64,000 nucleotides of DNA, taken from Phyllobates terribilis (Eukaryota). Below the pieces are notes generated by a model. The model did not search any database. It was given only the letters and a program-made list of their open reading frames with translations, and was not told the origin of the DNA. The DNA lies in assembly GCF_046119375.1 (NCBI RefSeq), contig NW_027362982.1:2542001-2606000 (forward strand), given 5' to 3'. Made by a program: the position numbers and the translations under genes. Shown here in pieces: positions 14,746 through 63,326 of the stretch (position 1 is the stretch's first letter; every line of letters starts with the position of its first letter).

Positions 14746-16490
14746 ACATAGTATACATAGTAACATGGTAACATAGTTTTTAAGGTTGAAGGAAGACTAA
14801 GTCCATCTAGTTCAACCCATAGCCTAACATGTTGATCCAGAGGAAGGCAAAAAAAAACCGTGGCAAACACTAAACTCCGCATTGGGGAAAAAAATTCCTT
14901 CCCGACTCCATACGACAATCAGACTAGTTCCCTGGATCAACGCCCTATCAAGGAATCTAGTATATATAACCTGTAATATTATACTTTTCAAGAAAGGCAT
15001 TCATGCCCTTCTTAAATTTAATAGTGAATCACTAATTACAACATCATGTGGCAGAGAGTTCCATAGTCTCACTGCTCTTACAGTAAAGAATCCCCATCTG
15101 TGATTATGATTAAACCTTCTTTCCTCCAGACGTAGAAGATGCCCCCTTGTCCAAGTCTCTGGCCTCAGAGTAAAAAGATCAGTAGAAAGGTCTTTGTACT
15201 GTCCCCTCATATACTTGCACATAGTAATAAGATCACCCGTAAGCCTTCTTTTTTCCACACTAAATAACCCCAAGTGTAATAACCTGTCTTGGTATTGCAG
15301 ACCCCCCAGTCCTCTAATAACCTTGGTCGCTCTTCTCTGCGCCCTCTCTAGTTCAGCTATGTCTTTCTTATACACCGGAGACCAAAACTGTACACAGTAT
15401 TCTAAGTGTGGTCGCACTAATGACTTGTATAGAGGTAAAATTATGTTCTCCTCATGAGCATCTATGCCTTTTTTAATGCCTCCCATTATTTTATTTGCCT
15501 TTGCAGCAGCTGCCTGACACTGGCCACTAAACGTCAGCTTGTCGTCCACCAATACACCCAGGTCTTTTTCAGTGACAGTTTTGCCCAGTGTTTTACAATT
15601 AAGCATATAATTATACATTTTATTTCCTCTGCCCAAGTGCATTACCTTACATTTATCCCCATTAAAGCTCATTTGCCATTTATCAGCCCAAGCTTCTAGT
15701 TTAGATAGATCCTCCTGTAATATAAAATTGTCCTCCTCTGTATTGATTACCCTGCAGAGTTTAGTGTCATCTGCAAATATTGAAATATTACTCTGTATGC
15801 CCCCTACAAGGTCATTAATAAATATGTTAAAAAGAAGGGGGCCCAATACTGACCCCTGTGGTACCCCACTATTAACTGAGGCCCAGTCTGAGTGTGTTCC
15901 ATTAATAACCACCCTTTGTTTCCTATCACTGAGCCAATTCTTAACCCACATACATATATTTTCCCCTATCCCCATTGTTCTCATTTTATGTATCAACCTT
16001 TTGTGTGGAACCGTATCAAAAGCTTTTGAAAAGTCCATATACACAACATCCACTGCATTTCCTTGGTCCAGTCGAGAACTTGCCTCCTCATAAAAACTGA
16101 TCAGATTAGTTTGACAGGAACGGTCCCTTGTAAACCCATGTTGATATTGGGTCATGAGGTTATTCTTCTTCAGATACTCTATTATAGCATCTCTTAGGAA
16201 ACCCTCCAGGATTTTACCCACAGTAGAGGTTAAGCTTACTGACCTATAATTTCCAAGTTCAGTTTTTGTCCCCTTTTTGAATATTGGCACCACATTTGCT
16301 ATACGCCAGTCCTGTGCTACAGACCCTGTTATTATGGAATCTTTAAAGATTAAAAATAATGGTCTATCTATGACGTTACTTAATTCCTGCAGTACTCGCG
16401 GGTGTATCCCATCCGGGCCCGGGGATTTGTCAACTTTAGTGGTTTTTAGACGCCGCCATACTTCCTGCTGGGTTCAGCAAGTGACATTTA
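14746..16490 (-). mobile_element. CR1-clade LINE, 5'-truncated; ORF2 RT fragment 15001..16293
   Basis: DFSKAFD, GVPQGSVLGP, FADD, KDLGV motifs; 3' GGTTGAACTAGATGGAC motif and short ACTATGT-type tail repeats. Confidence 0.95.
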
Positions 16491-23700: not shown

Positions 23701-25689
23701 TCTGGGTGAGGTGCAGTACCTCTGTGGCGACTGAACCCTCAGGGGCGCCACACTAGCATTGGAAGAGCCCAAGGAAGATGTAATTCATACAGTTCTAGGA
23801 GACTTCCCTGTGGACTCTCCTCAACTTGATGGAGCAGTTATCATACCAGTGATACACTTCTATCAGCAACCAAAAGAACCTCCACCACAAGTAGAACCTG
23901 TAAGCGCCCTAGAAGAACCTGCTCAGGAACAGGAAGAGTCTCCAGTAAGAGGAGGGTCACCAGTTGAAGCAGAGCCTGAAGGCCCAGTAAACAGTGCACT
24001 TGCCAGTCCTATAGAGAGATTGAGGCATTTCTATAACTTACCTACATGTAGATCTGATAGGTTAGCAGATAGTGCATACACAGACACCAGTATCACTCCA
24101 GTGCTACGAAGATCCACATGCAGCACATAAGGCCAAATCCATGCCAGGTTTAGGGATTAAAATACAAAATGCCTAAAGTGTAAATAGTTACCCAGTTGGG
24201 TATTGCCTACTATTATTTATTGTGTGAACTGAAAAAGTTATATATGTGTGTTGCCCAGTTACCCATAAGGGTATAAAGACTTGTAGGCTGAGGACTGTGA
24301 GCAGCCAAAAACTGTCATGTAAATAGTTGCACTTATTAAAGTGCCCTTATTGATTGTATGCAACAGATGACCACTGAACAAATACCCGTTTGGCGTGGCG
24401 GAAGACGTGGTCCAACGTCGGATCACCTATGCCCTGCAGCCACGCCCAGGGCCTATGTTGAGGGTTTTCGGACAGGTCCCTCATGCTGCTCGATTTGCAT
24501 CTTTATCAGTGAGATGGACACCTGTTTTATGGAACTCACTGTAACTTTAAGAAAATATATTATTGTTATTATAATTGTTATTGTTGTAACCTGTTACAAA
24601 ATGCTTCAGTCCAGGAGTACTGAATTTTACTAGGGGGGAACGTGGCACCCTGCTGTTCACAGGTACCACAGGACCAAAAAGGGTGCATGGACGGACTTCT
24701 CCACAAGAGGCCCTCACTACATACAGACACCTCCACCCTTCCACCTCATACCACCAGAGGGAGCCCTGTTAGGGATATATATACTGGAGGGTGGAGTTAG
24801 GTAGAGAGAGTGTGCTGACGCTAGGAGATCAGTGAAGAAGCAGCACTCTGGCTGCTGTGCTGAGGCAAGCCAAGGCCTACAGTACGTGCTGAAGGCTGAG
24901 GGGGCCCCGAGTGTGGCCGGAGGCAAAGCAGAGAGAAGTGACTAGGGGGCAGAGGAGCATCATAGGCTCACCCCAGAATACAAACTGGACACCGGGTCCG
25001 CACCTACAGGGTCCTCTACACCCAGTAGGGATTACCGGAATACCAGGAGGACTACAAGTACTGGTCGACCTGACGCTAAATCCATTGACAGGACTAGGAA
25101 CCATGAAGGCCCCAGCGTCCAGGGATCGTGGTAGTCAGAAGAAAGTCCTACTACCAAGCTGACAGGTGAGAGAGTGAAACAGCATAGAAGCTAGGCCCAG
25201 TTGCAGGCTGGCCAGGAGCTTAGAGAGAGGAAGAAACAGACCAGGAGGCCTTATACCTGCTCACTGGGGAGAGTCCAGAAGTGCACCCTTCCTACCGAGT
25301 ACCCTGGACCGTACCTGTTATTTACAGCAGGGAAGGTACCAAAGTGAATCTCCTGTGTGCGTGTCCGTCATTCCCCCTGATCCGACCTGGCCCCCTCTCA
25401 CCTGCATCCCTTCCTCCACACTGCCCTGGGGCCCGCTCCACCTGTGGGGAGCCGTTCCAACCCAGCTGCCTTGTCAACCGCCCCAGAGGTCTGCAGCAGC
25501 GCTGGTTACCTATTACCAGAAACCACAGGTGGCGTCACAAGACAAAACTGCTAACCGCTCTATCAAGTGACAAAGCCCCTTTTCAAGAGAGACCCCAGAG
25601 TACGGGCCCGGGAGCCGACTGTCATGACATCCTACAACGAAGGTAAATGCCCGGGTACCGAGTTCTCCCATATCCCCCTGGGCGAGTCA
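17744..25689 (+). mobile_element. Gypsy element G2, TSD CATT; 5' LTR 17744-18513 fused by deletion to late gag; 3' LTR 24641-25689
   Basis: LTR repeats, PPT TTTTACTAGGGGGGAA, protease LLDTAS, RT YLDDVIVY, RNase H and integrase fragments with many disruptions. Confidence 0.95.
22485..23752 (-). mobile_element. Solo LTR (family D) inserted in the G2 integrase tail
   Basis: Reverse complement TGTGGCGCCC...GCACGTCA; TSD ATAG/CTAG; G2 pol sequence resumes after 23756. Confidence 0.88.
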
Positions 25690-36786: not shown

Positions 36787-38841
36787 AAAAAGAAATGATA
36801 AATACCTGTATTTTGCAAATGTTAAAATGTTTTATGTTTGTTACCCGAATACTAATTATGTTTCTCTAGTTACCTGACAGGGTTTATGGACTGACAGGTT
36901 ATAGACAATGAATAACCGGATCTGTACCTTGTAAATAGTTGCACCTGTTAAGTGCCCCCTTTGTGCCAGACCACAGAACAAAAACCCGTGGAGGTGGCTG
37001 AAGACGTGGTCCAACGCCGGATCATCTATGCCCTGTAGCCACCCCAGGGCCTACGTGGAGGGTTTGGGACGGGTCCCTCAAAATGCATCTTTGGTGACAT
37101 GGACACCTGGTTACGGAAGCGCCGTGACCTATAAAAACTGAACTCCTTGTACATATGTTGTTGTGTTATTGCTTATATATGTTGTTAGAAATGTGTTTAG
37201 TCTCGGAGTACTAAAATTTACTAGGGGGGAATGTGGCACCCCAGGGGTCTGGTTGCCACAGTGGTAGAAATACCATGTCTGAGAGCGAGCATGGGTTTTC
37301 CTGGTCAGGAGCATTATTGCATGCCACACCTCCTGCCCCAGTCCAGGGAGGGAAGGAACCTGCCCTTTATAAACTGGAGCTAGGGCGGGGTTAGTCTAGT
37401 CTAGTCCAGAGAGAGGGACAAAGCAGCAGCAAGGAGCTCTGTAGGAGCAAGTAGCTGAAGACCAGGGACTGGAGACGCGGAGCTCGTCCTGGCAGAAGAC
37501 GCAGAGAACCGGACACCGGAGTCCGAGGCTGTGGGGATTCTACACCCAGCAGCAGAAACCACCTGGCAGGGGATTTCAGGTCCTCTGGCCATAGAAAGCC
37601 CGGAGGCTAAGTCACGCGCAAGGGACCGGCACCGCCATCGAGGAGCGGAAGGCACCAAAGACCCAAGTCACCAGCCCTACGGGTGAGCACCACACGGTAC
37701 ACTCAGGGACGTGGGCTACTACACGACTACAGCAGGGTAGCCAGGAAGAGTGCAGTCAGATGGGAAGGCCTACACCTCCACCTGGCCAGGGGGACTCTTG
37801 TTTGCTCACAGACTGACCAGGCCTCTAATGTTAGCCAGTACTCCCGGCAGGGCCTCCTTCCTTACCAACAGTAAAGACCCTGAACTGCACTGCACGGAGT
37901 CATTTCTGCTGCGCCCATGTACCACAACCCTCACCATCTACACACGCTGCCCTGAGGCTATACTCCTCCCGTGGGGAGTTATACTACCCTCTGCTGCGCA
38001 CACAACATCAGCCTCAGCGGTCTGCCCCGCAGCGGCGGTTTTCAGTGACCGCAATCCACGGGTGGCGTAGTCGGACATTTAAACATTACAAAACCAAGTA
38101 AACAGATCCGCCACTGGTTTGACTACCCTGAGCCACGGGACCGGGTCTCCGCCACGGAGACTACAACCCCTAGCATCACACAGAGACCCGGCTCCGGGTA
38201 TTCCTCCACACACGGCCCAGGGGGCGCGTCACAGGCGTTACTGGAACAATTACAGTCACTACTCACAGCATTAAGAGAGATGGCATATCCCCGTATTCAG
38301 CAATGCATCAGTGCAAAGCTAGTTGTCAGTCAGTGCCGGGGCCTGGACACAGCCACTCCGCTCAGTGCTGTGAGCAGTGACTCATTTCTACTAATACACC
38401 TGCATGACTGAAAGTCCCAGGCTCCTGGGAGAAATAAAGTTACATTTTCTCCTAGGCAAGCACTTTCAGCACTATGGCAGGGAACCTTCATAACAATATT
38501 AACTTGAAGATTAACCCTATAGCTGCAGGTTAATAGCAACACTGGACAAGACAGCTTCCGTAACTAACACTATTCTATCTGTGAACCCTTTCTAGGAAAA
38601 TCCAGTTCATTTCTTGCACCCTTTTAAAAAGTACTTTTTGTCAGATTTACTTTTAAAACCAGATGAAACAGGACACATGATAAAGGCTACAAGAGCAAGC
38701 TCCAGATGGATCATTTACTTTTCACAATAAAAGGTACAGCAAAAGGATAGGCATCCTGTTTTGACAGGTTATTTTTTTTTCCAATTTTGGCGAGGAGAAA
38801 AAAAAAAAAAGAAGTTGAGTGAAGTTTCATAGACTAGGTTG

Positions 38842-46392: not shown

Positions 46393-46611
46393 ACACACAC
46401 ACACACACACAGACACACACACAGACACAGACACAGCCCCTCTGCAGAATATAAACCAGAATGTAAACCTATATTTCTCTGCGGTATCTGTGCATCATGA
46501 ATCATTGTATGTATTAAAGGGGCCCACTGAGACTCAAAAACCTGGAGCCGGCCCTGTGTGTGTATGTATTTTACACAGGAGCAGTGTGTGTGTATATATT
46601 TTGCAGAGGGG

Positions 46612-46657
<46 letters not shown>
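46393..46657. repeat. (CA)n and (TG)n microsatellite tracts
   Basis: CA-rich tract 46393-46436 and long TG run about 46614-46657. Confidence 0.9.
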
Positions 46658-46659
<2 letters not shown>

Positions 46660-46702
46660 TTTGCAAGTCTCCTGTAATGTCCACACCTGCCCCAGGTTAA
46701 AT

Positions 46703-47440
46703 CTCTGACTGACGCAGCGCTCTGACTGACGCAGCCCCCTGACTGATGCAGCGCTCTGACTGACGCAGCCCCCTGACTGACACAGCCCCCTGACTGATGC
46801 AGTGCTCTGACTGATGCAGTGCTCTGACTGATGCAGCGCTCTGACTGACGCAGCGCTCTGACTGATGCAGCGCTCTGACTGACGCATCGCTGTGACTGAT
46901 GCAGCCCCCTGACTGACGCAGCCCCCTGACTGACACAGCCCCCTGACTGACGCAGCGCTCTGACTGACGCAGCGCTCTGACTGACGCAGCGCTCTGACTG
47001 ACGCAGCGCTCTGACTGGCGCAGCGCTCTGACTGACGCAGTGCTCTGACTGGGGCAACGCTCTGACTGACGTATCGCTGTGACTGACGCAGCCCCCTGAC
47101 TGACGCAGCCCCCTGACTGACACAGCGCTCTGACTGACACAGCCCCCTGACTGACGCAGCGCTCTGACTGACGCAGCGCTCTGACTGACGCAGCGCTCTG
47201 ACTGACGCATCGCTGTGACTGGCGCAGCGCTCTGACTGATGCAGCGCTCTGACTGGTGCAGCGCTCTGACTGACGCAGCCCTCTGACTGACGCAGCGCTC
47301 TGACTGACGCAGCGCTCTGACTGACGCAGCGCTCTGACTGACGCATCGCTGTGACTGGCGCAGCGCTCTGACTGACGCAGCGCTCTGACTGACGCAGCGC
47401 TCTGACTGACGCATCGCTGTGACTGGCGCAGCGCTCTGAC
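46703..47440. repeat. 17-bp minisatellite (GCAGCGCTCTGACTGAC and variants), about 43 units
   Basis: Direct reading of the array; its 51-nt periodicity produces the spurious 17-aa repeat ORFs. Confidence 0.95.
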
Positions 47441-47749
47441 TTTTATATGTATGTGCACAGCGCTGACCCACTACCCGCGTCACATGACTATGGGAGACAT
47501 ACAGGGGCCAGGTGGTAGACTTTTGGCTGGTGTAGAAATTAAAGTTTTGCCCTTTTTCCATCACAGGTGAGAAAGGCTGCAGAGTCCGGCTCCACAGTCA
47601 GGAGCCATCATAGGAGCACACAGGATGCAAAGTATGCTGGCCCTGTGACGCAGGAACACTTCCATGGAGCCAGAGGCTGGAGCTCGTAGAGACCGCGGCG
47701 GTGAGCCCTCCAGCACCCGGCCACCCCCCATGTATACACGGCCACTTAC

Positions 47750-48267: not shown

Positions 48268-51221
48268 GTGAGTGGTGATCGGGCCTGGGACTGGCGCACA
48301 TGTATAGGGGCTCCAGCCTTATGTTGTACTTTATATATGGTACCAGTGATTGCTCACTGACACCCCCATGTTCCTTCATATCGCTACCCGTAGCGACCAC
48401 GCACCAATGGCAGAAAAGGAGAAGTGACCTCTCCAGCAGGACAGGGGGGCATGGGGGATTCATAGCTGAGTATACTCAGGACATACAGTACAGACCAAAA
48501 GTTTGGACACACCTTCTCATTTAAAGATTTTTCTGTATTTTCTTGACTATGAAAATTGTACATTTACACTGAAGGCATCAAAACTATGAATTAACACATG
48601 TGGAATTATATACTTAACAAAAAAGTGTGAAACAACTGAAAATATGTCTTATATTCTAGGTTCTTCAAAGTAGCCATCTTTTGCTTTGATGACTGCTTTG
48701 TACACTCTTGGCATTCTCTTGATGAGCTTCAAGAGGTAGTCACCAGAAATGATCTTCCAACAATCTTGAAAGAGTTCCCAGAGATGCTTAGAACTTGTTG
48801 GCCCTTTTGCCTTCATTCTGTGGTCCAGCTCACCCCAAACCATCTCGATTGGGTTCAGGTCTGGTGACTGTGGAGGCCAGGTCATCTGGCGTAGCACCCC
48901 ATCACTCTCCCTCTTGGTCAAATAGCCCTTACACAGCCTGGAGGTGTGTTTGGGGTCATTGTCCTGTTGAAAAATAAATGATGGTCCAACTAAACGCAAA
49001 CCGGATTGAATAGCATGCCGCTGCAAGATGCTGTGGTAGCCATGCTGGTTCAGTATGCCTTCAATTTTGAATAAATTCCCAACAGTGTCAAAAGCAAAAC
49101 ATCCCCACACCATCACACCTCCTCCTCCATGCTTCACGGTGGGAACCAGGCATGTAGAGTACAACCATTCACCTTTTCTGCGTCGCACAAAGACACAGTG
49201 GTTGGTACCAAAGATCTCAAATTTGGACTCATCAGACCAAAGCACAGATTTCCACTGGTCTAATGTCCATTGCTTGTGTTCTTTAGCCCAAACAAGTCTC
49301 TTCTGCTTGTTGCCTGTCCTTAGCAGTGGTTTCCTAACAGCTATATTCCGATGAAGGCCTGATGCACAAAGTCTACTCTTAACAGTTGTTGAAGAGATGT
49401 GTCTGCTGCTAGAACTATGTGTGGCATTGACCTGGTCTCTAATCTGAGCTGCTGTTAACCTGCGATTTCTGAGGCTGGTGACTCGGATAAACTTATCCTC
49501 AGAAGCAGAGGTGACTCTTGGTCTTCCTTTCCTGGGGCGGTCATCGTGTGAGCCAGTTTCTTTGTAGCGCTTGATAGTTTTTGCAACTGCACTTGGGGAC
49601 ACTTTCAATGTTTTCCCAATTTTTCAGACTGACTGACCTTCATTTCTTAAACTAATGATGGCCACTGGTTTTTCTTTACTTAGAATTTGTATTATGGCAA
49701 GAAAAAAGCAGCTAACAGTCTATTCAGTAGGACTATCAGCTGTGTATCCACCAGACTTCTGCACAACACAACTGATGGTCCCAACCCCATTTATAAGGCA
49801 AGAAATCCCAGTTATTAAACCTGACAGGGCACACCTGTGAAGTGAAAATCATTTCTGGTGACTACCTCTTGAAGCTCATCAAGAGAATGCCAAGAGTGTG
49901 TGACGCGCTCCCTGGGCCGTGGGGCACCCAGTGCCGGGCCGGTAGATGCTGGGGGATGTCACAGTGGCGGTGACCCGGTCCGTGACCCGGGGAGGTCAAT
50001 AAAAGGGGTTATTGATAGGGGATTTATAGTGACTCTATAAAGTTTGTGACGCCACCTGTGGTACGCGGCTAAAGGGAGCCACCGCTGCGCAGCAGGTCCT
50101 CTAGAGCTGATGTTACTGAAGCAGGGATGGTGTGGCTCTCCACAGGTAGAGCTTAGCTCCAGGGCAGTGTAGATGTTGTTGTAGGTGATGCTGGGCGTTG
50201 TAGTGCAGGGGTTGATGGTGCAGTAATAAACACAGAGGCAGTGTAGTGCAGTCCTCAGGGTCTTTACTCTCGGTTGTTGCAGTTCAGGTTACAGGTACCA
50301 GTGTAACTTCCCTCGACGTGCTGCGCTTACTCAGGGAGGGGTTCAGACCACCCCCAGTTAACTTCAGAGTACTTAACAGGACCCCCTTCTGTGTGTTCGA
50401 TCTCTCTGGCCTTCTCCCTGCACCTCACACCTAGTGCCCCCAATCCGGAACCAGCGGGCCTTGGCGGGTGACATCTGTTCCATTCCCTGGGTCCTATATG
50501 GCTACCTTCTCGGTGAGACTGGTGTGGACTTGTGGCTACAGGACATAAAATACTGTAGCCTCCAGTTTCTAGTTAGGCATAGAGTCCTCTGCTAGTTGAG
50601 GGATCGGTTCCCTTTGTACGGCCTGACCCCTCCACCGCCTGATAGATTCGGGCGTACGGGTGGCCTCCAGCACTGCCCGTACCCCTGGCGTCCTTTCCTT
50701 ATTCCTGGAGCCTTTCTCCTGCTCCTCTCTCCTTTCCGTTCAGTCCTGGGCCTCTCACCAGGCCCTCCTCCTGAGCAGAGCTCCTACAGAGCCTCTGCTC
50801 CTTCAACTTCTCCTCCTCACTGAACCTCACTTCACAAGATGGCTCCTGTTCTTATATCATCTCTCCAGTGTTCCCCTGAACTGCTTCCTCCACCCACACC
50901 CACTACATGGTTCCCCCTTACTGTGGTCCCCCCCCCACTCCTGCCTGGGACCAGGGACTGTGCTCTCCAGTAGGAGCAATCTCGCCCTGCCCTCTGTACT
51001 GGAGTAGTGTAGTGTTGGATGCAGGTGTTAGGGTCCCGAGCCGTACTCCTTCCTTACCTGAGAGTGAGACACCACACCTCTGGGTGAGATGCAGCACCTC
51101 TGTGGCGACCGAACCCTCAGGGGCACCACATACCCCCCTGGTAAAACACAGTACGTCCGCGGGCTGGAACAGAGTAAAAAACAGGGTATTTTTAAAGACA
51201 TGCAAAATTTTGGAATGCATT

Positions 51222-52462
51222 TGTGGCGCCCCTGAGGGTTCGGTCGCCACAGAGGTACTGCACCTCACCCAGAGGTGTGGTGTCTCCCTTTCTATCAGGT
51301 AAGGAGGGAGTATTGCACGGAACCCCAACACCTACATCCAACACTACACTACCCCAGGCCAGCAGGAGGGGCAAGACGCAATGTAGTTTTCTGCTGAGCC
51401 CTGACCCTGGCTGGGGTGGGGGGAACCCAAAGTTAGGGCGAACCAGTAGTGGGTGTGGGTGGAGGAGGTAGTTCATGGGAGCACTTATACAGTAGATATA
51501 TAAAAGGTAGACATTTTAGCATTGGGGAGTTGAAGAACAGTGTGTGGTTGAGTAGGAACAGTCCGGGAGCAGAGTCTCTTTAGGAGCTCTGCTCCACCAC
51601 AAAGGGCCTAGAACTGAGGCCCAGGAGGGGAGCAGGAAGTAAGCTCCGTTCTATAGAAGGGATCCTAGGGGGTACGGCGAATGCAGGCGGCACCCGTACA
51701 CCCCGAACCTGCCAAGCGTCAAGAGGATCTAGGCCGCAAGAAGGGGACCGGCCCCTGGCCCAGTCGTGCAGCTTCAAGCCTCGGCTGGAAAAACCGGAGG
51801 CTTCTGGCTTCTATAGCCACAAGCCAAACCCTCACTTCAATCCAAAGTAAGGTCAAGCAGGTCTGTGCAACTCCGACGGACAGGGGGGACCTCGCAGCAC
51901 CCGAACAGGATTCACAGTGGCAAGCGCATGGCAGGAGGGAGAAAGACCCAGCGCGAAGTCGGTCTAGAAAGGTACATAAGAAAGTGGGGTTCTGCCAGGT
52001 ACACCCAAGCTGCCTGAGGAAGGACTGAACCCCTGCCCGGTGAACGCAGAGCGACGCGGGAGGCTTGCACCAGTACAGTGCACCTGTGGACTGTCTAAGA
52101 ACTGTGAGTAAATCTTGGATGACTGCACCGAATTGCCTCCGTCCCTTCCTTTCACCAGCGCCGTTTCCCTCCCTACACTACAACGCCCAGCGCACCTGCA
52201 TTTATTCTACACTGCCCTGAGGCCTGCTCCACCTGTGGGGAGCCGTTCCATCTCAAGCTGCCCTAACACCTGCCTCAGAGGACTGTCGCAGCGCTGGTGA
52301 TCCTCACCAGACACCACAGGTGGCGGCACGACATATCCCCTATAAATATCCCCCTTTTGAGTGACCGCCCTGGGCCACGGACCGGGCCAGCCACCGTGAT
52401 ATCCCCCAAGAGCAGCCATAAGGCCCGGCTGCCGAGTACCCCACGGCCCTGGGGGCGAGTCA
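51222..52462 (+). mobile_element. Solo LTR (family D) in the 3'-UTR of E
   Basis: TGTGGCGCCC...GGCGAGTCA; perfect TSD CATT. Confidence 0.92.
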
Positions 52463-52957
52463 CATTCACATAGAAGATTATGAATATAACATTTCTTCCC
52501 TTTATGGGAGGCACATTTCTTGAACGTTACTGGTTGTCAAAACATTATAAAACACTTTTAATAACATTCTTCAACAAGTTACAGCACGATCTGTAACCGG
52601 GTGTCCATTTTCTTTAGTAAGGTGCTATTCAGTGAACATGAGGGACCCGCCCGAAAACCCTCAACGTAGGCCCTGGGCATGGCTACAGGGCATAGATGAT
52701 CCAGGTGTTGGACCACGTCTTCGGCCACGCCAAACGGGTTTTTGTTCGATGGTCTTTTTACATAAAACCAATAGGGGGCACTTTAATAAGTGCAACTATT
52801 TACACCGGAAAGTTCTTCGGTTATTCACCGTCCATAACCTGACAGTTTTTGTACCCTTTCCAGGTAACTGGATAAACACACTCACATCTCAAACTTGCAG
52901 TGTCTCTGCCATACCCCTACGGGTAACTATATACTGTTCAAGTTCCAGCTACTGTGC

Positions 52958-54330
52958 TCAGTAGTGGTGCTCCCTCCTGGGAAGCTCTTGTCCACTATAG
53001 GCTGGCCCAGCCAGGTCATCAGCGCTGTAGGATGAGGAACTGCTCACTTTCCCCACCCTGTAGACATTCAGGGCATACCAGTTCCTCTCACATCTATGCC
53101 TGGTGTAGGTGACGTAATCATCCGGGTACAAGTTCCGATCCGGATGTCCTTCTTTAAGGTGGGACTCCACGTCCCTCTGATTCACGAAAAGGTCCGTCTC
53201 GGCCTGTGGATCCCGGATGAAACCCCATCCTCCATGCTGGTTGAACTTCACTACGGTCCCTTCGGCACGGGGACCTTATGCTGACTTCCTGTCCTTGCGG
53301 GCCCTGGCCTTCTTCTCCATGTTCCGGGCCTCCAGTCTCTCCTAACGCACCCGCCGGATGTGGCACTCCTTCTCGAGCTGCTCCACTTTCCTCTTGCAGT
53401 CCTCTCTTCTGCGGGCAGCCTCTGCTTTTGTTTCTCGGGGAAACCCCATGAGGTCTTCCCCAGGGTTATCCCACTCAAATTGATCCTCCTCACTTCGGGA
53501 GACGGTGGGGGGTGGGGGAGCTGGTAATAGTGGGAGCCACTGGTCTTCCACCTCTGCGGTCCAATCCCAGGGTCGGCGTCCGTACACCCACTCGGGTGTC
53601 GGGGTAAGCGGTTCCCGTAAGGGGCCCAGGAGCGGGCCGGTGTTGCTGGTGCCCGGAGGTGACGGTTCCGAGCCCCAGAGGACGTCTAGGGCGTGCGCGC
53701 CCGGGGACAGATGACCTGGAAGGAGGGCCCGGAATGGGTCCGCGTCTTCCGCGCCCGGGGGCGGAGGGCCTTGCTGGGGTGTCAGGAGCGGGTCTGCGTC
53801 AGTAGCGCCCGGGGTCGACGGTTCCACCAGAGGGCCAGGAGCAGGTCAGCGCCTCTAGCGCCCGGGACAGGGAGGCTCCTCTTACCTGCTCCCGCGGCCG
53901 CTCTTGCGCTGCACTCTGCCTCCTGGTGCTGGTCCGGATCCGCCAAGGCTGGGGCGCTGCCTGTGCTTTGCAGCGCTGGCTGCTGCCGGTTCGCCATCCT
54001 CTCTACTATCTCCTTTTTCCAGCTGGCGATGGCATCTTGCTGGGCCCTCTCCATTCTCCCGGTCAGGTCCTCCATCCCGGCATAGAGGAACTCCGAATCC
54101 TCCCGGGACAGCTTGGAAACTACCTCCTCCAGGGTGAGGGGTGCCTCAGGTCGTAGCAGGCCGCTGGCAGGGACTCCTGGTGCACTTCCCTTCATGTTGC
54201 CTGCCAGGTGCGGTCTGTCTAGACTGGTCAAGACCACACCCTGTCTCCCAGTTTTCTTCTCTCCTCTCCCCTTTCTGGGGCGGTCCCATGGCTGCTTGCT
54301 GTCGGCCACACCCGGAGGTAGCCTCTCCAT
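52958..54330 (-). pseudogene. Element E internal ORF (about 455 aa reconstructed): Pro/Ala repeats, charged helix, C-terminal cold-shock domain (53063-53260)
   Basis: One frameshift near 53830 and two in-frame stops; GTVVKFNQHGGWGFI...DLFVNQRDV...WYALNV matches the CSD RNP1/RNP2 pattern. Confidence 0.8.
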
Positions 54331-55846
54331 ATATGGCTACCTTCTCGGTGAGACTGGTATGGACTTGTGGCTACAGGACATAAAATACTGTAGCCTCCGG
54401 GTTCTAGTTAGGCATAGAGTCCTCCGCTAGTTGAGGGATCGGTTCCCTTTGTATGGCCTGACCCCTCCACCGCCTGATAGATTCGGGCGTACGGGTGATC
54501 TCCAGCACTGCCGTACCCCTGGGGTCTTTTCCTTATTCCTGGAGCCTCTCTCCTGCTCCTCTCTCCTCTCCTTTCCTTTAAGTCCTGGGCCTCTCACCAG
54601 GCCCTCCTTCTGAGCAGAGCTCCTACAGAGCCTCTGCTCCTTCCACTTCTCCTCCTCTGACTGAACCTCGCTTCACAAGATGGCTCCTGTTCTTATGTCA
54701 TCTCTCCAGTGCTCCCCTGAACTGCTTCCTCCACCCACACCCACTACATGGTTCCCCCTTACTGTGGTCCCCCCCCACTCCAGCCAGGAACCAGGGACTG
54801 TGCTCTTGTGTCACCCTGGCCTGGATGCCACAAAATCTAATAAAGCTGTGTCTTTAGAGCAAGGGGGAGGTTCTCTAGTCAAGGGAACATTAGCATGCAA
54901 TACCTCCTGTCTCAGGCCAGTAGGGGGGCCGGCTGCCCCTATAAAAGCTGGAACTGGGGGCAGGGTTAGGGAGAACTGGACGACCTGTCTCAGGACTGAG
55001 AAGCGTCCCAGAGCAGAGAGGGACAGTTGTATTGCACCCTAAGAGGAAGTGTGGCGGTAGGAGAGCCACAAGCCAGAGACAAGAGGCGAAGTGAGCCTGT
55101 CTTGGCAGATAAAGAACTCAATTTACCAGACTTTGGTGTCTGAGGCTGTGAGGATTCCACATTCTCCAGCAGATAACCAGTCCGCAGGGGACTGTAGGTT
55201 CCTTGGCCTAAGAAGCCTGAATGCCCTGCCACAACAGAAGGGACCAGAAAAGCCGTACCAGGCCGGGAGCAGAAAGGAACCCACGTCGCAGGCGATACAG
55301 GCGAGAATACACGGAAAGCTCGGAAACGTGGGCTGTTACCCTATAAGGAGGAGATAGCCAGAAGGAGCACAGAAAGCACGGTAGGCCTACACCCTCACCC
55401 TGACAAGGGCCAATTTCCCAATTGCTCTCAGACATCCAGGTCCCCTCCTAGCCGGGACTGTTTATGGGTCAGTTTACCTGTTCTAGTAAAGACCCTGGAC
55501 TGCAACCTGTTGTCTGTGTGCTCCTTCGTGCCTCCAGCACTACCGGTACTGGGACTCTCACCACCATCACTCCCACCATCCATTATACTGCCTGGGGCCG
55601 CACTCTTCCCGTGGGGAGTCACACTACCCCAGCTGCACACCTTATCAGCCCCAGCGGTCTGCATGCAGCGGCGGTTCCTAATAACGGCAATCCACGGGTG
55701 GCGTAGTCGGACATTATCAATAGTGCATAGCAGACTATCACTGGCCTGACCACCCTGAGCCACGGAACCGGGTAGCCACTACTACCCCCATCGTTCCCCT
55801 GTTGCCCGGATCCGAGTGCCCCACGGCCCAGGGGGCGAGTCAGCTT

Positions 55847-55865
55847 TGGCGTAGTCGGCAGGATT
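55847..55865 (+). promoter_or_regulatory. tRNA-Ser primer-binding site of G4
   Basis: TGGCGTAGTCGGCAGGATT, complement of the tRNA-Ser 3' end. Confidence 0.88.
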
Positions 55866-56262
55866 GCAACCAACCCACCACAAATGGGTATTGCGTGCCT
55901 AGAAAAGACTTTGCACTTACCTGAGTGAAGTTTCCCGCCATCCGGAACCGTTTCCCGCCATTTCCACACCGTCTCCCGGCATCTTCCATCGGTTCCTGCC
56001 ATCTTCAGCCGTTTTCCCGCCATCGGACGCCATCTTCAGGACGCCGCGCGGGAAGAAGAGGGGCGTGGACGTCCAAACCGCGCGAGACCCGAAGCTCCGC
56101 CCCACGCACCGACGCTGCGCAAGGTCCTGGAAGGGAGAGAGAGCGATGCTGACGTCACCAGGACGCGACGCAAAGTCCTCGTCCGGAGCAGCACCAGCGG
56201 AGCCGCGGCCTACAGAAGAGGATCGTCGGAAGGTAGGCCACGCTTGACTAGGGGGGAGGAAG

Positions 56263-57255
56263 ATGTCGGACACGGAGGCGCCCACTACCACCAGCGCAGC
56301 TGCAGCAGCGGTGATGCCATTTTCCCTGCCCTACATTCCTGGAGCGGCCTGGCTGCCTAAGTATTCAGGGGAGCCCCATGCCCTAACTGACTTTAAGGAA
56401 AGGCTGTACAGTTTGTTCCAAGTTTACCCCCTGACAGAGGAACAGAAGGTCAGCATACTAACAGGGCAGTTAACTGGCGCAGCCCAAAGGGAGGTAAAAT
56501 CATGACCCACTGAGGAGAAAAGGACCGTGAAGGGTATTCTGGCCCGGCTGCGGGGTACCTTTGACACACGTACCTCTGCTGAAATTAAAATGAGGTTCTA
56601 TGGATGCAAGCAGCGGGCACAGGACAGCATCAGAGACTATGCCCTAAATCTGCAGGAAGCCTTGAGGGCTATCCAACAAACTGACCCTGGCAGTGTGCAG
56701 GAAACGGATAAGCTACTAACAGAACAATTCATAGAAGGTCTGCTGTCTAGCGCCCACAGGGCCCAACTGCACCTCATGTTCTTTCAGAACCCTGATCTGA
56801 CCTTTGCCCAATTTAAGGACAGGGCCATAAGGGTGCTCCGTGAACCTGCAACCAGTGGCGCTATAAACCCCCGGCGCCCTGCTCTCACCTACCACCAGGA
56901 GGCGGCGCCGTCCTCTGTGGACTCCGTGGGGGCTGAAGCACAGGCCCTGAGCCAAGCCCCGTCGAAGGATCTACACCACCAAGTCCAGGAGCTGACCAGG
57001 AGCGTTGCTGCATTGACCAGGACCGTCCAGGCATTACAAGTGGACCCGTCAAGACCCATTGAGTTGGCTTCAAGTCCGGAGGATGTCCCGTGGTGTCGAC
57101 AGAGGAGGATCCCGTCGTTCCGAGGGAGGCCCACAGACCGCTACGCGGAGGATGGACAGCCCATTTGCCGTCGATGCAACCAGCCCGGACACATTTCCAG
57201 GTACTGTAATTTAAACAGGTCCAACCTGGGGCAGAGGGCCGACCCCCAGGCATAA
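56263..57255 (+). pseudogene. G4 gag with one nonsense codon (TGA at 56503-56505, TGG in G3)
   Basis: Colinear with G3 Gag; CRRCNQPGHISRYC knuckle. Confidence 0.9.
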
Positions 57256-60200
57256 GATCACCAGGCCCTTATAATTGGCGTGATAAGTACTTTGGGGGGC
57301 GCCCGGTTTTACCCGTGGTGCTGGACGGTATCCCATTGAGCGCCTTGCTGGATACTGGGTCGCAAGTAACCACTATCCCTTATGTACTTTTTAAGCAGTA
57401 TTGGACTGATGCTGATATCACACGGTATCCAGACAGTAACTTGAGCATCATCGCCAGTAATGGCTTACCCGTGCCGCAGATGGGGTTCAAGGAGATGACC
57501 ATTAAAATTGGTAAAGTTGAACTACCAGCACAGGGAGTGATTATTGTGGACATTGACCGTCGTGAAAGTCACCCTAAAATAACTGTGGGTACTAACGTGA
57601 TTGAAAATTGTCTTTCAGAGGTAATTGTAATTCTACAACAGGTGGCGGTGAATGCTAGTTCCAGCCACAGATAGTCCTCAACAAGGAGATAAAAGCCCTG
57701 ATGAGACGGCAGCAGGTAGAACTATCTGGTGGTGAGATCGGTAGCGTAAGAATGAGTGACCCATTCCCCATTTCCATGCCTCCCAAAAGTGAAATGATGA
57801 TCTGGTGTCGGACTGCAATCGGGTTGAGAGGTAGAGACTACCAAGCCATGGTAGAACCCGTGTACTCGGACAGCAGGCCCACCATTTTGACAGCCCGGGG
57901 GGTGGTTGATGTCCGTCATGGGAGGGTGCCCGTCCGCATCCTCAACATTGGGGAGAGGGAAGTACACTTACCCAGGTACGCTACACTCGCCAAACTGTTT
58001 GTTGTCGAACACAAAGCTATCAGGGCCGTGGAACCCTTGCCTCCATCTCCACAGGCGGAGGGTAATGGCTCCCAGAAACAAAAGGAGGACTGGTGCCAGA
58101 AACTCCATGTGGGTGCTGACTCCACTCCCCTGCACCAAAAACAAGGAGTCTACCGGGTGATACAGGAGTACGAGAGAGTCTTTAGTAAGCACCTGCTAGA
58201 TTTCGGCAGAGTAAAAGGGATAGAACACCACATCCACACAGGGAGCCACCCACCAATAAAAGAGAGACACAGGCCTGTACCCTCTGCACATTATCAGAAT
58301 GCCAAGGGTATGCTAAGAGAAATGAAAGAAACTGGGGTCATTAGAGATAGCTGTAGCCCCTGGGCAGCCCCCTTGGTTCTGGTGAAAAAGAAAGACGGCA
58401 CCATGAGAATGTGCGTAGACTATAGACAAATCAACCGTATCACCCATAAAGACACATACCCGCTGCCTAGAATAGAGGAGTCTTTAGCCGCACTAAAATC
58501 AGCTAACTTCTTTTCTACTTTGGACCTTACTAGCGGGTACTGGCAGGTTCCTGTGGCAGAGGCTGACAAGGAGAAGACCGCCTTCACCACCCCGATGGGA
58601 CTGAGCGAATTCAACTGTATGCCTTTCGGGCTCTGCAACGCACCAGGGACCTTCCAGCGGCTGATGGAATGCTGTCTAGGGCACCGAAACTTCGAGACGG
58701 TCCTCCTTTACCTGGACGACGTGATCGTCTATTCGAAGACCTACGAGGGCCATCTAAAGCACCTGGCCGAGGTGTTCGAAGCCCTGGCAGGCTATGGCCT
58801 GAAGGTGAAACCATCGAAGTGTCACCTGTTGAAACCGAAGGTCCAGTACCTAGGGCACGTGGTAAGTGCGGAAGGAGTAGCCCCCGACCCTGACAAGGTC
58901 ACGGCAATCAAGAGCTGGCCAAGCCCCTCGAATATCAAAGAGGTGAGACAGTTTCTCGGGTTGGTAGGCTACTACCGAAGGTTCATCCCCGGGTTCACTA
59001 AGATGGCAGCTCCTATGCAGGACCTCCTGATTGGACAGTCTAAGTCCAGAAGTCAAAAGCCACCCTTCAAGTGGGATAAACCGGAAGAGGAGTCCTTCCG
59101 CCAGCTAAAGATTGCCCTCACAGGGGATGAGATCCTGGCTTACCCTGATTATGGCCAGCCTTTCATTCTCCACACAGACGCCAGTAATGTGGGACTGGGA
59201 GCCGTACTGTCCCAAAACCAACAGGGCAGAGAAAGGGTGATCGCGTACGCCAGCCGGAAGCTGAGGCCCACCGAGAGGAACCCGGAGAATTACAGCTCCT
59301 TCAAGCTAGAATTCTTGGCGGTGGTGTGGGCCGTGACGGAACGCTTCAAGCATTACCTGGCCTCTGCAAAGTTCACCGTGTACATGGACAACAACCCGTT
59401 AACACACCTGGACAATGCAAGACTGGGTGCCCTAGAACAGCGGTGGATGGCCCGTCTCTCCAATTACGACTTCGTGATCAAGTATCGGGCAGGCAAAACC
59501 AATGCCAACGCTGATGCCCTATCGAGAATGCCTCACTTACCTGAAGGTGACGAAGACCCAGAAGAGCTGGAGGAGGTAGAACTCCCCGCGTTTCACCGGT
59601 ATGGAGCCGCTCAATACTCCCACCACGTGAAGGAGGAGGATCTAACAACCATGATGATCAATCCCCTACATCACCACATCTGGGCCGAGACCCAAGATAG
59701 TGACCCTGCCATCCGCCTGGTGAAAGATCTGCTGACCCAGGAAGATGCCCGCATAGATCCGGATGCTCCAGAGGAAGCCAAGCAGCTATGGAAAGAGAAG
59801 AGCAAGCTGTTCCTCTATGAAGGCAAGCTGTGCAGAAGGATTGTCAACCACCGGACGCACTAGCTGACCTGGCAAGTCGTGGTCCCAAGGCGGGTTGCAG
59901 CTATGGTCCTGGGGGCTTACCATGACAGAGCGGGGCACTTCGGTTGGAAGAAACTGGAGTTCCTGCTAAGAGGATGGTTCTTTTGGGTCGGCATGAGAGG
60001 GGCTGTAGAGAAGTGGTGCAGAGACTGTGGCCCTTGTCACCTAAGGAGGAAGGACCGTGCCAGCCAGAAGACACCCTTGAGGCCCATCATCACCACGCAG
60101 CCTCTTGAGCTGGTAGCTCTGGACCACGTCAAATTGGCTCCAAGCCGGTCAGGATACATCTATGCGCTGACAATCGTGGACCACTATTCCCGTTTTCTAG

Positions 60201-61381
60201 TGGTAGTCCCGGTGAAAGACTTGACAGCCCAAATGGCGGCCAGAGCCTTCCAGCAATACTTCTGCCGTCCACACGGGTATCTGGAACAGGTCCTGACAGA
60301 CCAGGGTCCAGCGTTCGAAGCTGAAATCTTCCAGGAGTTCTGCAACCTCTATGGCTGTAAGAAGATTCGTATAACGCCTTACCACCCACAAACCAACAGG
60401 ATGTGTGAGAAAATGAACAATATAGTCATTGATCTCCTGAAGACGTTGCCCCTGGAGGAACGCAGCCTGTGGCCAGAAAAACTGCCGGACCTGATAGACT
60501 TATACAATCATATCCCGGTGAATGCTACCAACTGCACCCCGGCTTACCTGATGCGAGCCAGACCAGGTAAGCTGCCCGTAGACCTGGAGATGGGAGTCCT
60601 GACGCCTGAGGACACCTCCCCGGATGCGGACTGGGATACGGAAAGACAACTGCAGTACAAGAAGGTACAGGAGAGTGTGGAGAGGAGCCTGGCCCAGGTG
60701 AGAGAACGGCAAGAAAGCCTCTTCAACCAACACGCCCCTGCTGGTCCCCTAGAACCTGGTGAGCAGGCCCTGAAGCGGAAGAGAAGGCTACATAAGTTGG
60801 ACGACCAGTGGGAAAGGGAACCCTACACCGTACTGCAGTCTGATCACGTCAACCCGAAGGTGTGCGTGATCACCAAGGACGGAGGTGAAACCACTAGCAC
60901 CGTCTCCAGAGACCACCTCAAAAGATGCCCCGAGCAACTCCGTAGTGCAGAAGAGGATCAGAGTGACCTTGAACCCGCAGAGGACAAGGAAGAAATGATC
61001 AGCACCGTTCTCGGAGAGTTCCCTCAGTCCTGGACTCGCATAAATGATGCCATAGTGGTACCCGTCCTGCATTTCCTGCAACCGGCACAGCAACAACCAA
61101 CACCAGAGCCGGAAGGTGAAGAGGAGCAAGCGGTTCCAGAGGCAGAAGAGCCTGTACTAGCAGCCCAGGAGAGTCAACCCTCTGCTGACATTGAGCCTGC
61201 CATGCCTGCGGTAAGCCAAAGGACCCGCAGACAGCTGCCTGCCCTACCTGTACACCCAGCTGGTAGCTGTACCCCTAACGCTAGTGGGGAAAGTCAGGTC
61301 AGTCCACCACCAGACAGTGGGTTAAGGAGGTCAACCAGGAGCACAAAGGGGCAGATACCCGCTCGCTGGAGAAAACTGTAA
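57210..61381 (+). pseudogene. G4 pol (PR-RT-RH-INT) with one frameshift near 57680 and a stop at 59861-59863
   Basis: LLDTGSQVT, YLDDVIVY, HTDASNVGLGAV, HDRAGHFG...CGPC, VLTDQGPAFE. Confidence 0.95.
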
Positions 61382-63326
61382 ATAACCTTGTTGCCAAATG
61401 TTGAAATCTTTGCCAAGTTACCTGCATGATTGTTAATAGTGTATTTCAGTTTCTTGCAGTTACCGTACGGACTCAAAGGTTATGGACTTTTTTATAACCG
61501 GGACCATGTATGGACTGCGTTCGGAGCCTAACCCAGGAATGAACTAAGACTGTAAAGGATTTGGGGTAGGACAGACCCCCCCCACCTGGTTAAGGCTCCC
61601 CGTTGTGCTGGTGATATGGACACCCGGTCACAGACCACACTGTGACCTTAAGAACTCAATCTGTGCGTCGTTTGTCTATTAATGTTTTATAGTCATGTAT
61701 ATTATCTTTGTTTATTGTTTAGTCCCGGAGTACTAAATTTTACTAGGGGGGAATGTGTCACCCTGGCCTGGATGCCACAAAATCTAATAAAGCTGTGTCT
61801 GAGAGCAAGGGGGAGGTTCTCTAGTCAGGGGAACATTAGCATGCAATACCTCCTGTCTCAGGCCAGTAGGGGGAGCCGGCTGCCCCTATAAAAGCTGGAA
61901 CTGGGGGCAGGGTTAGGGAGAACTGGACGACCTGTCTCAGGACGGTGAAGCGTCCCAGAGCAGAGAGGGACAGTTGTATTGCACCCTAAGAGGAAGTGTG
62001 GCGGTAGGAGAGCCACAAGCCAGAGACAAGAGGCGAAGTGAGCCTGTCTTGGCAGATAAAGAACTCAATTTACCAGACTTTGGTGTCTGAGGCTGTGAGG
62101 ATTCCACATTCTCCAGCAGATAACCAGTCCGCAGGGAACTGTATGTTCCTTGGCCTAAGAAGCCTGAAGGCCCTGCCACAACAGAAGGGACCAGAAAAGC
62201 CGTACCAGGCCGGGAGCAGAAAGGAACCCACGTCGCAGGCCATACAGGCGAGAATACACGGAAAGCTCGGAAACGTGGGCTGTTACCCTATAAGGAGGAG
62301 ATAGCCAGAAGGAGCGCAGAAAGCACGGTAGGCCTACACCCTCACCCTGACCAGGGCCAATTTCCCAATTGCTCTCAGACATCCAGGTCCCCTCCTAGCC
62401 GGGACTGTTTATGGGTCAGTTTACCTGTTCTAGTAAAGACCCTGGACTGCAACCTGTTGTCTGTGTGCTCCTTCGCGCCTCCAGCACTACCGGTACTGGG
62501 ACTCTCACCACCATCACTCCCACCATCCATTATACTGCCCTGGGGAAGCACTCTTCCCGTGGGGAGTCACACTACCCCAGCTGCACACCTCATCAGCCCC
62601 AGCGGTCTGCATGCAGTGGCGGTTCCTAATAACGGCAATCCACGGGTGGCGTAGTCGGACATTATCAATAGTGCATAGCAGACTATCACTGGCCTGACCA
62701 CCCTGAGCCACGGAACCGGGTAGCCACTACTACCCCCATCGTTCCCCTGTTGCCCGGATCCGAGTGCCCCACGGCCCAGGGGGCGAGTCACTCTCCCTTA
62801 GGAGCAATCTCGCCCTGCCCTCTGTACTGGAGTAGTGTAGTGTTGGATGCAGGTGTTAGGGTCCCGAGCCGTACTCCTTCCTTACCTGAGAGTGAGACAC
62901 CACACCTCTGGGTGAGATGCAGCACCTCTGTGGCGACCAAACCCTCAGGGGCGCCACATGTGCAAAGCAATCATCAAAGGAAAAAGGTGGCTACTTTGAA
63001 GAAACTAGAATATAAGATATTTTCTGTTGTTTCACACTTTTTTGTTAAGTATATAATTCCACTTGTGTTAATTCATAGTTTTGCCTTCAGTGTGAATGTA
63101 CAATTTTCATAGTCAAGAAAATACAGAAAAATATTTTAATGAGAAGGTGTGTCCACACTTTTGGTCTGTACTGTATGTAAAATACAGCAAAAACCCTTTA
63201 CCAGGTCCACTGCCCTGGCAATAAGCTGTGTAAGAAACTTTGTAATGTATTTGAGAGAAAAGTGCTTCTTTCTCCACTTATGAGCCACTTCATCTCCTCC
63301 CCCTTCCTCCTAAAGTTATCATACTG

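Follow-up and report, generated by a model that had tools for sequence, protein, structure and literature searches.

Element E, an LTR retroelement on the minus strand of a 64,000-nucleotide stretch of Phyllobates terribilis DNA (the window), carries between its LTRs a single broken ORF that ends in a cold-shock domain (CSD). The locus raises the question of what such a protein does in an element that encodes neither Gag nor enzymes, and of whether E belongs to a family built in this way or is a remnant of something larger. The analyses described below identified a genuine and unusual variant of non-autonomous LTR retrotransposons, and we have high confidence that it is a non-autonomous family with a CSD maintained by selection.

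Structure and History of Element E

Self-comparison and reading of the sequence showed that the window is a nest of insertions. Element E, a dead copy of a non-autonomous LTR retrotransposon, occupies positions 49901-62958 (minus strand) and lies within an element that we take to be of the Tc1 type, where a TGTG target duplication flanks it at 49897-49900 and 62959-62962. Its parts are collected in Table 1. The two remnants of the 5′ LTR are identical to the 3′ LTR at 611 of 635 aligned bases, and the Gypsy element inserted in this 5′ LTR encodes a PNMA-like gag (below the cut-off), protease, RT, RNase H and integrase. The solo LTR that interrupts the 3′ UTR is of a type that also flanks CSD ORFs at two other loci (L046 and L191).

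Table 1. Parts of element E and the later insertions within it, in window coordinates.
Feature	Positions	Strand	Basis or remark
3′ LTR of E, 1.23 kb, TG...CA	49901..51130	-	84% to LTRs of whole sisters
Polypurine tract, abuts 3′ LTR	51131..51139	-	Type as in sisters and autonomous Gypsy neighbours
Distal 3′ UTR	51140..51221	-	In sisters runs unbroken into proximal UTR
Solo LTR, later insertion, CATT target duplication	51222..52462	+	From related CSD-carrying subfamily
Proximal 3′ UTR, contains module 52881-52637	52463..52957	-	Module common to autonomous Gypsy elements
Two covarying hairpins in proximal 3′ UTR	52844-52752	-	Alignment of relatives
Single ORF, broken in E	52958..54195	-	Sequence and cross-lineage alignment
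Cold-shock domain	53057..53263	-	Pfam PF00313 match, residues 5-73 of last open piece
5′ leader remnant, stops at deletion junction	54196..54329	-	Comparison with whole sister
5′ LTR remnant, inner part	54330..54806	-	Matches 3′ LTR
Young autonomous Gypsy element, later insertion, CTCT target duplication	54807..62790	+	Candidate helper type
5′ LTR remnant, outer part (start of E)	62791..62958	-	Matches 3′ LTR

The ORF encodes, in order, an N-terminal helix, a Pro-rich repeat linker, an EWD..DLMGF motif with a long charged helix, the CSD and a short acidic tail. The initial annotation had described one disrupted ORF, and the damage proved to consist of one frame break near 53836 and two in-frame stops (53342-53344 and 53276-53278). 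The three PGAxxAD/LD repeats, the acidic Trp-rich stretch and the charged helix that it listed were all found in 53845-53342 (minus), and the CSD peptide that it quoted was placed at 53275-52961 (minus). The start of the ORF had to be revised: position 54330, where it had been taken to begin, is a deletion junction, and the ATG at 54195 is the most likely start, with a Met at that place conserved across lineages. Compared with a whole sister copy, E has lost about 830 bp, comprising the 3′ half of the 5′ LTR, the primer site and part of the leader. It had been cautioned that this deletion could have taken gag-pol. The lost segment has neither, and because none of the 74 LTR-paired CSD matches recovered from the genome contains pol, we concluded that the deletion in E did not remove gag-pol.

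Ten other loci are 98.7-99.3% identical to E's stretch and contain the same nest. They were considered as transpositions and rejected as such; because the nested insertions and the deletion are common to all of them, they are segmental copies and not new jumps. Elsewhere in the window, a tandem array of 17-bp units, with long minus-strand open frames, lies at 46584-47441, and a 490-codon minus-strand frame, presumably of LINE type, lies at 15004-16473.

Layout, Copy Number and Age of the Family

The genome (G000, 10.6 Gb) was searched with the CSD piece, and 150 matches were scored among 37,175 first-look candidates. Whole sisters measure about 4.6-4.7 kb and consist of an LTR, a tRNA-Ser primer site, a leader, one ORF, a structured 3′ UTR, a polypurine tract and a second LTR; the LTR is 1.2 kb, the leader about 370 nt and the UTR about 640 nt long in most of a set of 20 from among the closest non-segmental matches, taken as 10-kb stretches. 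Nine sisters had both ends readable. Their LTR pair identity was 0.91-0.985, and the 4-bp target duplication was exact in seven, had one mismatch in one and was missing in one. Complementarity to the 3′ end of a genomic tRNA-Ser(CGA) was found for the primer site, with 20 exact places, and ARAGORN called one of the five loci examined. Another sequence resembling the primer site was observed within the LTR, some 170 nt short of its end (window 50030-50065 and 52315-52335; L087 and L090-L105). It tends to match the PBS type of its own lineage and could possibly be a second tRNA-pairing or primer-activation signal.

Further lineages were found by a Pfam CSD scan and by searches with diverged copies. 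Group A comprises several lineages with CSDs 53-70% identical to that of E, group B has unrelated 1.03-kb LTRs and a CSD about 30% identical to that of E, and a third group of CSD elements is older. The same short layout recurs in three deep lineages whose synonymous sites have diverged. Copies of group B (L156-L166, L163) have LTRs that end in TA and not CA and open frames of 819 codons; this group also forms head-to-tail arrays with a period of about 3.64 kb, in which neighbouring units share LTRs.

Among the 75 CSD matches located in stretches of at least 4 kb, 55 sit between a pair of direct repeats, of which 54 have no gag or pol, one has a 40-residue piece of gag, and none has pol. Around the 20 unpaired matches, no same-strand gag or pol was detected within 2.5 kb upstream with the probes used. 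The family lacks the combination of gag and PR-RT-RH-INT that marks an autonomous Gypsy (Metaviridae) element, and the initial proposal that it is non-autonomous was borne out by the absence of pol from all 74 LTR-flanked matches. One locus (L101) that was considered as an autonomous carrier of the CSD was rejected, being a nested insertion with no polypurine tract before its LTR.

A 28-place CSD motif of group A had 15,393 exact matches in the genome, and its reversed control had none. A position-ordered sample, conditioned on this motif, was formed by 20 copies taken in order from the first 30 listed on contig C1, minus L218, L219 and L232. LTR pairs were 99.0-100% identical in 19 of these copies, no gag or pol was found inside the LTR pair in any of the 19, and 15 of the 20 had at least 440 open codons upstream of the motif. 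Because the LTR pairs are so much alike and the open frames are long, the family is very young in part and probably still active. Altogether, about 95 of at least 15,000 copies were sampled. Retrieval of the family, an initial suggestion, thus recovered sisters with a PBS, without pol and with long open frames.

Not all copies have the same protein. In a mini form (L087, L097 and L099) short tandem repeats come before the sole ORF, which encodes a CSD started by an ATG and nothing else; this points to the CSD as the core. CSD-less copies (L193, L195 and the element nested in L183) and half-CSD chimeras (L188 and L189) also exist, and the CSD is therefore not strictly required in cis by every copy.

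Relatives were found in Phyllobates terribilis, Ranitomeya variabilis, R. imitator and Anomaloglossus baeobatrachus, which represent three poison-frog genera, and the Logan proteins P0075 and P0123 belong in the element CSD clade. Profile searches of the protein collection, which are weak evidence on range, yielded nothing but poison-frog proteins among the longer candidates (8000 candidates scored) and no relatives among the short ones.

Fold, Surface and Origin of the CSD

The last open piece of E matched Pfam PF00313 with 30.4 bits (cut-off 27; E 3.5e-7; profile positions 2-65 of 66), as the initial annotation had anticipated, and five of five sister ORFs matched it at 27.6-29.5 bits. No other Pfam match was found in the rest of the ORF. 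The structure prediction that had also been suggested, an AlphaFold2 model of the helix and the CSD, adopted the CSD fold with a mean pLDDT of 83.6 (over 90 across the domain). When the predicted CSD was compared with cold-shock structures, Foldseek gave E 6e-7 to Csp proteins and a separate structural comparison gave Z of 10-11 (VIA Z 11.1, rmsd 2.9, 70 aligned), in keeping with a five-stranded OB barrel of the Csp type. In an unbroken sister, AlphaFold2 placed the helix at residues 290-341 of 448 (9-53 in the trimmed model), and the model of the whole single ORF had low confidence except for two helices. ESM Atlas returned CSD-type leads only, all under its 0.9 mark.

A kinship with Lin28 had been considered at the outset and was not sustained: a profile of 17 element CSDs scored 57-58 bits against YB-1/YBX2 (58 for YB-1), at most 44 against bacterial Csp, and 23 against the Lin28 CSD. 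Lin28 has a CSD followed by two CCHC knuckles, and no CCHC knuckle was found in whole element ORFs. The element CSD resembles Y-box proteins (YB-1/YBX1 and YBX2) in giving its best profile score with them, in the length of the loop between strands 3 and 4, and in the presence of F74 and F85. However, it is about 30% identical to YB-1 structures, has W65 and H87 replaced, and is C-terminal, intronless and located behind a long helix. In Y-box proteins, the CSD is nearly invariant, follows an Ala/Pro N-terminus and precedes a long basic/acidic tail, an architecture that differs from that of the element ORF.

RNP1 reads GWGFI or GYGFL in the element CSDs; the F of RNP2 is kept and its H is replaced in 75 of 76 stretches. 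The residues of YB-1 that stack on RNA are W65, F74, F85 and H87, according to PMC7498358. The equivalents of W65 and H87 are each replaced in 75 of the 76 stretches, many rows being near-identical, while those of F66, F74 and F85 are kept in 74-76 of 76 (F74 in 74; F85 in 74, with Y in 2). Y72 is often W. Because the equivalents of W65 and H87 are replaced, RNA binding could be weak, changed or absent, and their loss weakens a plain YB-1-like binding model.

In a tree based on 72 columns, all element CSDs formed one clade (97/91) across genera. The phylogeny that had been proposed to place the domain among YBX and Lin28 grouped the element CSDs but resolved no sister and had no true YBX or Lin28 row. 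The CSD of host ybx is split by introns (one exon is at L200) and that of the element is unsplit, which fits capture from an mRNA and does not prove it.

Other CSD-like sequences were observed. Protein P0084 has two tandem Y-box-like CSDs including a C-terminal extension. A single-copy 138-codon frame (L196/L201/L202; G000:C3:249.52 Mb) has a diverged CSD-like stretch that keeps the first-strand Trp, and no relatives of it were found among 97 candidates. A triplicated block (L136-L138; G000:C4:791.48-791.52 Mb) contains a diverged CSD with the RNP2 His, and each of its units adjoins an inverted group-A element. Loci L051-L056 (G000:C1:734.44 Mb) and L057-L058 are intronless, partly duplicated CSD retrocopies with frames of 358-508 codons, together with exons of the likely parent gene, and we take them to be CSDE1/UNR-like.

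Selection on the Protein

The dN/dS values were calculated on 33 of the 76 extracted CSD stretches, stop-free and picked to span the lineages. Although these are pooled pairwise counts, non-independent and without intervals, the contrast is large: dN/dS of the CSD was 0.11-0.17 within six lineages and 0.10-0.20 between group-A lineages with unsaturated synonymous sites, versus 1.1-3.0 in the two off frames. Across 14 long natural frames, dN/dS was 0.2-0.5 for the N-terminal helix, about 0.5-0.7 for the linker, 0.09-0.28 for the motif and long helix, and 0.07-0.23 for the CSD. Synonymous divergence falls upstream of the conserved Met, as would be expected for a leader constrained at the RNA level.

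Because the earlier copies had been found by protein likeness, the calculation was repeated on eight copies found via the primer site or by chance. Compared with L043, their dN/dS was 0.14 for the CSD (318 codons, 5 copies), 0.27 for the helix, 0.44 for the N-helix, 0.70 for the linker and 0.74 for the tail. Among the mini forms L087, L097 and L099 themselves, the CSD gave 0.15. These codon comparisons demonstrated that the CSD and both helices, the N-terminal one and the one that precedes the domain, are under purifying selection. An ORF confined to E and evolving neutrally, which would have spoken against the initial annotation, is thus contradicted by both the 15,393 motif matches and the CSD dN/dS of 0.1-0.2.

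Proposed Link to Gypsy Helpers

E's exact U5-PBS junction was found at 1,178 places. Among the first 30 elements with this junction, 15 continue into gag, 10 into an E-type ORF or leader, three into gag-CSD chimeras, and two into neither. When 11 gag-bearing junction elements were extended, four had both LTRs in view and none of the four contained a CSD. LTR ends are common to CSD elements and helpers, E and autonomous Gypsy elements have the same type of polypurine tract, as had been recognized initially, and over 62 nt the leader of the young lineage matches an autonomous leader at 92% identity. Autonomous copies that are young and have long pol frames are abundant.

The 3′ UTR had been described as common to E and two autonomous elements (G2 and G3). 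Module 52881-52637 matched autonomous elements of the window at 24245-24485 (81%) and 36859-37080 (79%), and BLAST gave no match in the one at 54807-62790. Of the four whole helpers that have the primer site of E, three likewise showed no E-type UTR module by BLAST. In the hairpins of the module, five of nine predicted pairs had changes on both sides. In the extended structure, 94.7% of the cells pair, and the covariation score of 0.233 exceeded all 500 shuffles and every slid control; the number of covarying pairs did not exceed the shuffles (123 of 500), and relatedness is uncontrolled in both measures. The loop of the first hairpin (window 52844-52752) reads GGAC in most rows and also in the Gypsy element at 54807-62790, presumably an m6A-type motif.

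The chimeras (L113, L125 and L130, extended as L187-L189) join a helper gag start to part of the CSD. Two of them, at distant loci, have the gag start in frame with the back half of the CSD and an identical junction; the third has a different gag and a junction at a similar point. The simplest reading would be template switching between co-packaged RNAs. From the shared cis signals and the chimeras, we infer that the E family borrows Gypsy enzymes, and the helper is quite probably the PNMA-gag Gypsy group. The element ORF was also considered as a degenerate Gag and rejected, since it has no likeness to eight local helper Gags (profile-profile probability 0.5%, no HMM hit) and Pfam gives a CSD only.

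Proposed Function of the CSD Protein

We favor, with moderate confidence, a helper-dependent satellite whose protein likely binds its own RNA and would favor the survival or packaging of that RNA in helper particles; a cis RNA-binding role for the CSD protein appears somewhat more probable than its absence. The element RNA would be transcribed from the 5′ LTR, translated, and packaged by helper Gag. Then, tRNA-Ser would prime at the PBS, helper RT would copy the RNA, and helper integrase would insert the copy via the shared LTR ends. The CSD-plus-helix protein would coat its own RNA and stabilize it, localize it or deliver it to helper particles. With the CSD on the RNA and the helices on itself, Gag or the host mRNP, it would be a cis-preferring coat or adaptor. 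Since amino-acid selection acts in many selfish lineages at once, the protein should chiefly benefit its own template. Host YB-1 supports HIV particle output via viral RNA metabolism (PMC6040738), and Gypsy RNA is plentiful in poison-frog ova (PMC6278860). More tentatively, the CSD elements may be parasites of Gypsy elements in poison frogs and form an old superfamily that is still active, in which a captured Y-box CSD serves as a cis adaptor that coats RNA and hijacks the helper particle. If true, satellite viruses and phage satellites would have a eukaryotic counterpart in these elements, which would also contribute to the giant genomes of frogs.

An action of the protein in trans, as counter-defence or as a modulator of the helper, seems rather unlikely. 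The protein could imitate a Y-box protein and displace host masking or silencing factors of the YBX/FRGY2 type from element RNAs, or it could bind a protein through a remodelled CSD surface. Loss of the W65 and H87 equivalents with retention of the fold and of F74/F85, the best sequence match being to Y-box proteins, the occurrence of copies with half a CSD or none, and the selection that acts on the helices as well all speak for such a role. Nonetheless, a product acting purely in trans is a public good that ORF-less copies can exploit, yet long frames are kept by 15 of 20 motif-conditioned copies; selection was found in each lineage tested, and the autonomous relatives, which stand to gain most, have no CSD. 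It is improbable that the host now needs the protein, with selection operating via frog development. There is a precedent in the single protein of a non-autonomous LTR family required in zebrafish development (PMC12067270), Xenopus LTR elements without pol are developmentally expressed (PMC4585706), and relatives are present in three poison-frog genera. However, selection in many parallel, spreading lineages with saturated synonymous sites is what is expected of selection at the element level, and no single orthologous locus was identified.

The initial annotation had left room for an accessory gene of an autonomous Gypsy element, with E-type copies as its deletion derivatives, and we consider this very improbable. 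The 5′ deletion in E is in its favor, and an unsampled autonomous carrier may exist among the 15,000+ copies or in another species. Such an element was seen among none of the sampled copies: pol is absent from all 74 LTR-flanked CSD matches, the 20 unpaired ones have no upstream gag or pol within the range given above, a CSD is missing from all four whole helpers that have E's primer site, and the short layout is uniform over three deep lineages with diverged synonymous sites. On these sequence comparisons, the accessory-gene reading can be taken as largely refuted for this genome. That the CSD is a functionless passenger, a piece of host mRNA, is hardly credible. The E copy is dead and the genome does contain host ybx and CSDE1 retrocopies, but a dN/dS of 0.1-0.2 versus off-frame controls above 1 and the single clade of element CSDs across genera argue against it.

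Comparison with Known Systems

TRIM, LARD and retrozymes are non-coding, helper-dependent, non-autonomous LTR elements. Retrozymes carry a hammerhead ribozyme in the LTR; the E family differs from them, with no Rfam match, ribozyme or other, when three whole elements were scanned at E up to 1, and only sub-threshold miRNA-like matches in the flanks. Satellite viruses such as hepatitis delta depend on a helper and encode their own RNA-binding protein, and are not integrated LTR elements. LINE-1 ORF1p combines a coiled coil with an RNA-binding domain and prefers its own transcript in cis. The likeness to the latter is a functional analogy and no homology is claimed, since LINE-1 is an autonomous non-LTR element and its protein has an RRM fold.

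The closest descriptions concern other vertebrates. Xenopus 1A11, Xretpos and lambda-olt 2-1 are likewise LTR elements of frogs that have a single ORF and lack pol (PMC4585706). The same source gives 1A11 a Gag-like protein and these elements tens to hundreds of copies, whereas the ORF of the E family has no Gag homology (local helper Gags tested) and ends in a CSD, and the family numbers at least 15,000 copies, their LTRs being near-identical. Zebrafish BHIKHARI (Bik-1/2) is also non-autonomous, recently mobile and endowed with a single protein-coding ORF; it is of lokiretrovirus origin and its ORF is a Gag (PMC12067270), in contrast with the Gypsy-type cis signals and non-Gag ORF of the E family. 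A review of accessory transposon genes (PMC6431247) does not contain the word "cold". No description of a CSD-coding LTR element was found in the literature searched, which excluded Repbase, Dfam, most subscription journals and supplements.

The usual description of non-autonomous LTR elements is that they are non-coding or encode only Gag. A family without gag and pol that has a foreign RNA-binding fold under strong selection in numerous active lineages shows that a retrotransposon parasite can evolve a protein tool of its own. It makes testable the competition of non-autonomous and helper RNA in packaging, cis preference in LTR elements, and the use or evasion by transposons of Y-box-type germline mRNA masking. 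With each copy about 4.8 kb long, the 15,000 or more coding copies amount to roughly 70 Mb before solo LTRs, which bears on the expansion of poison-frog genomes. Gene annotation is also affected, since element ORFs are listed as uncharacterised or chimeric genes. Gene models P0001, P0003 and P0154 fuse element ORFs to PF04827/PF13359, PF02854 and PF01400/PF00431, and are probably annotation chimeras.
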